Assembly (NCBI GenBank): GCA_965205975.1
Contig: OZ242195.1
Span: 5,344,001 to 5,408,000 of the forward strand
Source: Candidatus Latescibacterota bacterium
GTDB taxonomy: Bacteria; Latescibacterota; UBA2968
Direction: 5' to 3'
DNA length: 64,000 nucleotides
The position numbers are program-made. Numbering within the stretch: position 1 is the stretch's first letter; the number at the start of each line of letters is the position of its first letter. This document shows positions 24,001 to 27,000 of the stretch, piece by piece.

Positions 24001-27000
24001 TACGGGAAAGGTTTTTTTTGATCTTAAAGAAGGGCGGGACAAAAAGGGCGAGGAACGGCTCGCACTGGTGCGGATTGAGGAGCACTATCCCTTTCCGTGG
24101 GATGAGGTGGGTGCTATACTTGAAAAATACGGCGATGCGGATATTTTTTGGGGACAAGAAGAGCCGCAAAATATGGGTAGTTGGGATTTTATGGAGCCAA
24201 AACTCCGCCGATTGCTCGATAACAAAGAGCCAGTGCGCTATCTGGGACGAAAGCCCACGGCTGCAACGGCCACGGGTATTCAGTCGGTGCATTTGGCCGA
24301 ACAGCAAGAGATCGTGGAGATGGCTTTACGAATAGACGAATAGACGAATAGACGAATAGACGAATGGAAATACATGCTGGTTTTGGGTGGGTGGGGTTCG
24401 TTGATTCGTTGATTCGTTGATTCGCTTGTAGTTGCTTTTAAGGAGGCGCGTACATGCCTGTTGATGTGGTTTTGCCCGAATTGGGAGAGTCGGTGACCGA
24501 TGCCATTCTGGTCGAGTGGTTGAAATCGGATGGCGAGGCCGTGACGGTGGATGAACCTTTGGCGGTTATTGAAACGGATAAAGCCGATGTCGAGTTGCCC
24601 GCGCCTTCGGCGGGTGTGTTGCATACACTGAAGGCCGATGGGGATACGATTGAGGTCGGCGAGACCATTGCCACAATCGATGAGGATGGCAAAGCCGTTT
24701 CAAAGGTTGAAGTATCGGAGAAGGTCGATACGCCTGTAGAGGCCGATGGTTTGAGTCCGGCAGTGCGTCGGTTGGTGACAGAGCACGATCTCGATCCCAC
24801 GGCGATTACGGGTACGGGGAAAGACGAGCGGTTGACCAAAGAAGATGTGCTGGCGTATCTCGATTCAGGGGCCGATCCGCCCGTTTCTGAAACTGATGAA
24901 GAGCCACAAAAGGCACAAAAATCACAAAAGGTCTCAGCACCGGCTCTCGCTTCTTCCAGCGAGAGCGAGCGGCGCGAGCCTATGAGCCATATTCGTACGC
25001 GCATTGCCGAGCGTCTGGTTTCTGCACAGCAGACAGCGGCGATGTTGACGACGTTTAATGAAGTAGATATGAGCGGTATTTTTGATTTGCGCGCGAAATA
25101 CAAAGAGATGTTTGCAGATGTACACGGCATATCCCTGGGTTTGATGTCCTTTTTTGTTCGCGCCTGTGTTATTGCTTTGCAGGAATATCCCGATGTCAAT
25201 GCCAGTATCGATGGTTCTGATATTGTCTATCGCGATTATGTCAATATGGGTATTGCTGTGGGTACTGATCGCGGTCTTGTCGTGCCTGTTTTGAAGTCGG
25301 CAGAGCGCATGTCTTTTGCCACTGTTGAGTCTGAAATTAAGCGCGTGGCGCTCTCTGCGCGAGAAGGCAAGTTGGGGTTGGATGAGTTGAGCGGGGGCAC
25401 GTTTACAATTACCAATGGCGGGGTGTTTGGGTCGCTGTTGTCAACGCCTATTCTCAATCCGCCTCAGACGGGTATTTTGGGTATGCACGCGATTCAGAAT
25501 CGGCCCGTTGCCGTGGGGGATGAGGTGGTTGTTCGCCCGATGATGTATCTGGCATTGACTTATGATCACCGCCTGATTGACGGTCAGACTTCGGTCACAT
25601 TCCTGGTTCGCGTAAAAGACTTGCTTGAAGATCCCGCGCGTATGATGCTGGAAGTGTGATCCGCAGATGACGGATAAACCGTAGGGGCGATCCCTCGTGG
25701 GCGCCCGAATTTTTTACCGATTTTGAGGAGCCTCTCGTGGCAGATAATACATTCGATCTCATTGTTATTGGTGCCGGTCCGGGAGGGTATGTCGCGGCGA
25801 TTCGTGCGGCGCAGTTGGGCATGCGCGTGGCATGTGTTGAGAAACAGGCGTTGGGTGGCACATGTCTGAATGTGGGCTGTATTCCGAGTAAAGCCCTTTT
25901 GGAATCGAGTGAGTTGTTTCATCAGGCAGAGTCTTCGTTGGGTATTCACGGTGTGAAGACCGGTGGTGTGGAACTGGATTTGAAGGGTATGATGAAGCGC
26001 AAGTCCGGTATTGTGCTGAGGATGACGGGTGGTATTCGCGGTCTGTTTCGCAAGAATAATGTGACGCATATTGCGGGGCTGGGGCGGTTGGCTGGCGATG
26101 GAAAGGTCGATGTTGAGGGGGATATTTATTCGGCAGAGCGCATTTTGATCGCTACGGGTAGTTCTGCTATTGAGTTGCCCAATTTGCCTTATGACGGTGA
26201 GTATGTGATTAGTTCTACCGAGGCGTTGGCACTGGATGAGGTGCCCGAGAAGATGATTGTTATTGGCGCAGGTGCGATCGGTCTCGAGCTGGGGTCGGTG
26301 TGGCGTCGTCTGGGTGCAGAGGTGCATGTGGTGGAATTTTTGGATGGGATTACGCCGACGATGGACCGCGAATTGTCCCTCGGTTTGCAGAAGGTGCTGG
26401 AGAAGCAGGGGCTGAAGTTTTCGTTTGAGACGCGCGCGGAGTCGGCCGAGGTTCGCGATGGGAAGGTGATTGTGACTCTCGCACAGGGCGATGAGACGAC
26501 CTCTGAGACATGTGACCGATTGTTGGTCGCTGTTGGGCGAAGACCAAATACCGATGGGCTGGGTGGCGAAGATGTGGGGTTGGAGATGGATGACCAGGGA
26601 CGCATTCTGGTCGATGACGTATTTGAGACAAATTTGCCCGGTGTCTATGCAATTGGCGATGTGATTCCCGGTCCGATGCTGGCGCACAAGGCAGAGGAAG
26701 AGGGTGTGGCTGCGGTGGAATATATGGCGGGGAAGGCGGGGCATGTGAATTATGACGCGATTCCCAATGTGGTGTACACGCATCCAGAACTGGCATCGGT
26801 GGGCTTGACAGAGGAGCAGGTTGTGGCGGATGGCATTCCCTATAAGGTGGGTAAGTTTCCAATAGCTGCCAATGGTCGCGCGCATACATTACAAGCGGTG
26901 GATGGACTGGTGAAGATTATTGCCCACGAAAAGACGGATCGCGTGTTGGGTATTCACATTTTGGCCGCACGTGCGTCCGATATGCTCGCCGAGGGGGTTC

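Follow-up and report, generated by a model that had tools for sequence, protein, structure and literature searches.

Octamer-array elements at stop codons in a Latescibacterota genome and their kinship to cassettes of four-helix-bundle genes

Described repeat systems and the copy between sucA and sucB

GTAG-tagged REPs, REPINs and BIME mosaics are modular intergenic hairpins, and Elhai is said to have described small dispersed repeats in cyanobacteria. According to the available parts of one paper, the GGGAATC repeats of Xanthomonas form arrays between aligned ORFs that lie near or overlap stop codons on the sense strand; often (70 and 75 cases) two arrays make up an inverted pair facing inward, and there is no replichore bias and no link to insertion sequences in the text available (Rehm et al. 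2015, PMC4692102). Supplement 2 of that paper places one GGGAATC array 6 nt after bccP, overlapping the start of XCC0516, with no right arm listed in the portion available; XCC0516 is a solved four-helix-bundle S23p protein, as described in the accessible sections of PMC4990558. The TAACTGA repeats of Beggiatoaceae, Cyanobacteria and Bacteroidetes are described, in the excerpts available, as intergenic, oriented with transcription and overlapping upstream stop codons, with stops in three frames on the forward strand only (MacGregor 2015, PMC4679880). Intervening sequences of 23S rRNA may contain an S23p ORF, and RNase III cuts their stem, as stated in the sections available (Warrier et al. 2016, PMC4990558). 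The criteria for MITEs, of which Nezha is an example, include target duplication and ends that match an insertion sequence, in the part of the review available (Delihas 2011, PMC3184786).

The element considered here lies between sucA and sucB in a window of 64,000 nucleotides (the whole stretch of DNA analysed) from a Candidatus Latescibacterota genome, designated G000, on which the element census was also run. The features of the window are:

21542..24343, + strand: sucA, 2-oxoglutarate dehydrogenase E1
24326..24437, + strand: whole replaced segment, 112 nt replacing 11 other nt of the empty allele, which take in some of the native stop region of sucA
24329..24368, + strand: left arm, five CG-octamer units, four of them CGAATAGA and one a variant
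24369..24398, + strand: core of 30 nt, G-rich subfamily
24399..24424, + strand: right arm, three TTGATTCG-type units, an imperfect inverse of the left arm
24425..24437, + strand: non-array tail, common to three filled alleles
24440..24446, + strand: Shine-Dalgarno sequence of sucB, native and also present in the empty allele
24454..25659, + strand: sucB, dihydrolipoyl succinyltransferase E2
34163..34258, + strand: heptamer-armed sister element between a stop and a start codon; TAACTGA units make up its right arm, and it shares the core motif
35841..35882, + strand: lone left-type octamer array directly 3' of a stop codon, followed by another hairpin module
43336..43420, - strand: second heptamer-armed sister element

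The TAG that now ends sucA comes from the second unit of the left arm (24343), and the last residues of the protein are LRIDE in place of the LDFS of the empty allele, whose joint runs from 24325 to 24438 in all four sequencing runs compared. Per unit, the right arm departs from perfect pairing with the left by one G-U and one mismatch; the whole forms one long stem of -31.9 kcal/mol (z -5.4), equalled by none of 200 shuffles. Part of the G-rich core appears to resemble half of a GTAG-type REP. This part is common to the window copy and the heptamer-armed sister elements, eight of which were found in G000 by a narrow pattern; the same core is seen with three different arm types. The tail (24425..24437) is similar to the end of a decamer repeat that the related genome G001 carries at its sucA/sucB junction, and may be the remnant of an earlier occupant. 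At the window copy Rfam gave one chance match, far below its gathering score, and none near it. Two other tracts of the window, 47778-47887 and 56269-56362, hold a 52-nt direct duplication and a 21-nt tandem repeat of in-frame length.

RNA runs containing the region were mostly sponge metagenomes, and three of them carry, in assembled contigs, the empty sucA/sucB allele of other strains. A further run, of unrecorded kind, yielded contigs identical over both flanks (24325-24438) with the empty allele at full depth; this would mean either that near-identical strains carry both alleles between them or that few cells of that sample carry the filled one.

Short tandem arrays, inverted pairs, placement at stop codons and lack of a clear replichore bias are shared with the Xanthomonas repeat; in contrast, GGGAATC is a heptamer that forms G-quadruplexes, is mostly conserved between two species and is not tied to a cassette by its authors in the text available, whereas the present element is an octamer, cored and highly polymorphic. 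TAACTGA is itself the right-arm heptamer of the sister elements in the window, but in Beggiatoaceae, by the account available, its direct arrays stand singly at the ribosome-binding site, where they are proposed to be regulatory, and have neither paired arms nor core. The 23S intervening sequences, as far as their available description goes, have in common with the cassettes discussed below a four-helix-bundle gene bracketed by inverted ends, a long transcript stem and a patchy distribution; unlike them, the present element lies at mRNA junctions between protein genes, has arms of tandem units and holds no gene. It resembles Nezha-type MITEs, from what is available of their description, in its size below 200 nt, inverted ends around a core, stem-loop, and filled and empty sites, but has no target duplication, and no insertion sequence with matching ends was found for it. 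Some copies contain GTAG-type hairpins, a likeness to REPs, REPINs and BIMEs; however, its arms are tandem arrays, no RAYT is linked to it among 25 Y1 loci, and its strand has no clear replichore bias. A search of the openly accessible literature found no paper that ties repeat arms to four-helix-bundle genes and dispersed arrays, or that describes the octamer element.

Structure and placement of the copies in the genome

A scan of G000 for inward-facing array pairs and single arrays, against gene calls made for this analysis (4761 genes), found 57 paired elements of 54-193 nt and 36 single arrays; the mirror-read pattern gave no array in this genome. None of the 57 pairs and one of the 36 single arrays lies inside a gene, in agreement with an earlier survey of the genome, which had counted 56 copies between genes and 74 of 75 arrays as intergenic. 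The upstream gene is on the element's strand in 50 of 57 copies and the downstream gene in 42; the upstream ORF ends within the left array in 24 of the 50, at offsets spaced 8 nt apart; the next start codon follows at a median of 21 nt (the survey gave 22), with an SD-like motif in 33 of 42 (genome 64%); and stop codons occur in all three frames of the forward strand in 53 of 57 copies and of the reverse strand in 3. All of these placements had been reported by the survey and were closely reproduced. In 53 of the 57 copies the nearest stop codon is no more than 25 nt from the end of an arm. The all-frame stops follow from any unit that contains a stop codon and has a length not divisible by three, three 8-nt units being sufficient.

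The arms are inverted around a non-coding core and form a stem-loop, the purine-rich arm coming first; they are imperfect and of variable length. The core had been described as a single sequence found in either orientation, but it falls into two distinct subfamilies, not one inverted: C-rich in 36 copies and G-rich in 18, with 3 other, and many copies have extra hairpin modules. The pairing of seven positions in every eight, claimed for the arms in general, holds for the commonest right unit, which makes up 95 of the 201 units of the eight commonest types, but not for the others. A strand asymmetry arising from G-U pairs, with the forward strand as the better folder, holds in the window copy but in only 18 of 57 copies overall (p 0.10). 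The ends are ragged, the commonest leader occurring in 10 of 57 copies and the commonest trailer in 6.

The survey regarded the element as adapted to operons. This is not borne out by the gap types, since 45 of the 57 copies (79%) lie in co-directional gaps, the same as the genome background of 79%. The strand of the element shows no clear replichore bias (32 of 57), and that of the core a weak one (35 of 54); GTAG hairpins are on the leading strand in 106 of 134 cases and GTCAT hairpins in 66 of 76. Decamer arrays of one pattern number 31 in G000, 18 of them starting near a stop codon, and the most frequent 14-mers of the genome include three abundant CRISPR-like repeats.

Filled and empty sites among relatives

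Elsewhere in the genus the octamer pattern is present in 18 of the 20 genomes compared, with 2 to more than 100 matches each. The sucA/sucB junction is empty in 14 of 17 close congeners, the native stop codon overlapping the native Shine-Dalgarno sequence, and outgroups have the empty allele with the same empty C-terminus. G000, G004 and G020 are filled, with identical junctions. In G017 (locus L020), about 6.7 kb of extra DNA lies between sucA and sucB, with repeat hairpins at its start. In trees of the flanks the three filled alleles do not group together; right beside the element, identity between G000 and the empty G008 is 99-100%, and one sequencing run with identical flanks is empty. Filled alleles that form no clade, together with empty alleles in near-identical flanks, suggest that the alleles persist or cross species by recombination.

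Of 164 array loci in relatives, 119 could be mapped, to 99 sites of G000, and the 45 without a mapped site were dropped. G000 was called filled at 36 of the 99 sites and empty at 63, of which 24 were left out because of an array in the other orientation, a junction not reached or neighbouring indels, leaving 39 clean empty sites. Of 34 sites of G008, 18 are empty in G000. The element is thus mobile, as the survey had proposed, in the population sense: copies come and go between congeners.

The survey had left target duplication and the boundaries of the element undefined; the ends proved variable, and the longest junction repeat (4.5) did not rise above the control (4.35) in the 39 pairs. Native bases are replaced, with a median of 18 nt and none replaced at only 3 of the 39 sites, a length that intergenic divergence at 92-95% flank identity inflates and a direction that outgroups polarise at sucA/sucB only. 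Junctions lie within 12 nt of a stop codon in 37 of the 39 pairs (null 33% within 25 nt), and native gaps are of 40 nt or less in 28 of 39, against 12% by base count, in alignments that tend to stop at gene borders and a mapping that favours conserved junctions. Microhomology at the left junction is weak (mean 1.9 versus 1.5 of 6, p 0.047). Module make-up is unlike in 23 of 39 doubly filled comparisons, the modules exchanged being the two core subfamilies, GTAG and GTCAT hairpins, a further hairpin, and heptamer and decamer arrays.

At the stop-bearing arm the native stop codon is lost in 23 of 31 cases, and in these 23 the upstream protein is changed by only -8 to +9 residues, which bears out the earlier statement that the element sits on the stop codon and supplies another. 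Of 18 cases at the other arm, 7 have lost the native stop or have it altered, and no protein is lengthened (p 0.03); with the element read backwards, 70% of frames remain open. Orientation is reversed in 8 of 28 co-directional pairs, so insertion is not strictly oriented, and at two sites opposite orientations have identical outer junctions. The strand bias fits a survival filter aided by flipping in place; alternatively, it may reflect a built-in orientation of insertion. Of 18 pairs, 8 keep the native Shine-Dalgarno sequence, which the element had been thought to leave or bring along, and 6 have a new one of unrelated sequence; carry-over of a donor trailer containing one applies to at most one of 7 (p 0.035) and not to the others, and the pairs compared have no conserved Shine-Dalgarno sequence within the element.

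Kinship to four-helix-bundle gene cassettes and probable origin of the element

The octamer element is akin to arm-bracketed cassettes of four-helix-bundle genes, a kinship that the survey missed. In the order, 32 of 53 genomes have PF05635 genes, many of which are framed by inverted heptamer arms and begin at the stop codon of a host gene. A subfamily with CG-octamer arms is found in G047, G044 and G031 and at one metagenome locus; the CGAATAGA unit itself flanks the four-helix-bundle gene in G031, and also occurs at an unrelated four-helix-bundle gene of a Bacteroidota genome (L483). The three Latescibacterota proteins with CG-octamer arms form one clade (99/98) and score over the TIGR02436 cut-off. 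On the protein tree CG-octamer arms originate three times, a point against the derivation of the element from such a cassette; in several groups the arm unit tracks the protein clade.

Upstream of a uvrA-like gene, a junction compared across 13 genomes of the order is empty in 4, holds a four-helix-bundle gene with arms in 2, another gene with a heptamer arm in 1, and arms only in 6, where four of the six upstream proteins have lost their last residues to the array. The G028 allele corresponds to that of G044 minus 511 nt (88% identity over 140 shared nt; flanking protein 98%). Derivation of the arms-only forms by gene loss is tentatively favoured over gain of the gene into existing arms because two families have the gene, about as diverged as its flank (71% versus 66%); against this, the gene-bearing G044 is nested among arms-only genomes. 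A heptamer-armed gene stands intact at a stop codon in G020 and G002 and is absent at that site in G000, which has 48 arrays of that gene's heptamer, 33 of them starting within 30 nt of a stop codon.

An octamer-armed gene was not found within the genus: none of 21 genomes matches the linked protein at E<=1e-20, and in G000 none of the 36 single arrays brackets a gene within 4 kb. Since none of the 57 paired copies contains a TIGR02436/PF05635 gene, the element is better regarded as a derivative or sibling of the cassette than as a full member. Within flanks of up to 900 nt, a four-helix-bundle gene lies near arrays at one of 121 metagenome loci and none of 44 viral loci; the linked protein was absent from viral contigs and had no sequence match in PDB. 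Right arms in the other genus are different units, and the G000-type core was not traced to any gene-bearing cassette. Arm pairs that lack a core occur in the order and in metagenomes.

The sole PF05635 gene of G000 is broken and has decayed heptamer arms (L001 1501-1698; G000:C1:1810549-1810746), its intact orthologue being in G012. In G048 (L352 1655-2032) a 125-aa gene that looks glyoxalase/VOC-like by eye stands in the place of the cassette and has a heptamer right arm; cassette arms may carry other cargo. In an Armatimonadota record (L076), a gene resembling a replicative helicase, in surroundings that look like phage or plasmid DNA, has at its end arrays of the same octamer that face outward and then inward; these may be an origin instead of an octamer element.

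On balance the octamer element is probably the gene-less form of an arm-bracketed TIGR02436/PF05635 cassette, with a passive origin and replacement recombination. The parent cassette would consist of a small four-helix-bundle gene between two inverted short-repeat arrays, reaching from the host stop codon to the next start, and arms-only copies would arise by deletion between the arms. They may then spread to new junctions by replacement-type recombination around stop codons, producing no target duplication, and homologous recombination over short tracts may carry filled and empty alleles from one species to another. A copy that removed the native stop would survive only with the stop-bearing arm first, and would afterwards be hard to lose, which could account for the strand bias as well as for the clustering at stop codons. 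Copies exchange inner modules and can flip in place. The paired arms would give transcripts a long stem, possibly acting as an RNase III or mRNA-stability element. The element is most likely a near-neutral selfish repeat and not an insulator made by the host.

The strongest alternative, though an unlikely one, assigns the movement to the four-helix-bundle protein. Acting as mover or targeting factor, the protein would recognise the repeat of its own arms and place DNA or RNA bracketed by them at stop junctions, and the octamer elements would depend on it as non-autonomous copies. Gene-bearing and gene-less forms both begin at host stop codons, the placement in G000 is tight (a stop codon no more than 25 nt away in 53 of 57 copies; native gaps of 40 nt or less in 28 of 39 pairs, versus 12%), and the arm unit follows the protein clade in several groups, as this would predict. 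However, the 21 genomes of the genus have no matching gene despite high turnover, RVT_1 reverse transcriptases are absent from G000, no catalytic site or activity of the protein is known, and retention bias could yield the same placement. The broader proposal that S23p genes form the autonomous part of a class of mobile elements not described before, which replace sequence at stop junctions and each have their own arms, so that the octamer elements and the heptamer arrays of Xanthomonas, Beggiatoaceae and cyanobacteria would be shells, is equally tentative and, at present, rather doubtful.

It is improbable that the copies are REP- or BIME-like mosaics, in which the core would be half a GTAG-type REP moved by an HUH (RAYT-like) transposase and the arrays slippage-grown passengers. 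Such an origin is suggested by the resemblance of the core to GTAG-tagged palindromes, the frequency of GTAG and GTCAT hairpins within copies, the replichore bias of these hairpins and, weakly, of the core (35 of 54), and the association of one core with three arm types; yet Y1 transposases are absent from G000, neither arrays nor core lie beside any of 25 Y1 loci of the family taken from the matches listed, the strand of the element is without a clear replichore bias (32 of 57), and arm pairs also occur without a core, both in the order and in metagenomes. The Y1 genes of relatives are mostly IS200/IS605-like and without arrays. GxxExxY/PF13366 had no match in G000. A small GIY-YIG nuclease frame of 96 aa (L496, G000:C1:3521579-3521797) follows three tandem hairpin repeats common in G000, and is a candidate mover for that other repeat family.

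The survey's reading of the element as a true MITE, dependent on an undetected DDE transposon and adapted to operons, would account for inverted arms around a core, a long stem-loop, and filled and empty sites, but is largely refuted by the junctions, with their replaced native bases, ragged ends and lack of target duplication; with no arm-bracketed gene in G000 and no linked transposase found, Y1 being the family examined, it is very improbable. Just as remote is the production of arrays in place by slippage from stop-codon sequence and their homogenisation by gene conversion, with nothing mobile: lone octamer arrays after stop codons in unrelated phyla, weak left-junction microhomology and freely varying copy numbers agree with it, and it may hold for some single arrays, but it is contradicted for paired copies because it cannot yield a shared core, a second arm and extra modules at sites empty in a sister genome (18 of 34 sites of G008).

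As a synthetic insulator the element would, at present, offer little gain over standard three-frame stops. For its hosts, it is a repeat that rewrites the C-termini of core-gene proteins such as SucA. Arrays of 7-8 bases beside stop codons in several phyla have had no known origin, and the S23p family no known function; these become one testable puzzle, for which the genus offers dozens of filled and empty pairs and a junction that alternates between gene-bearing and gene-less forms. The interpretation of the octamer element as the gene-less shell of a cassette may explain how such bacterial repeats originate.
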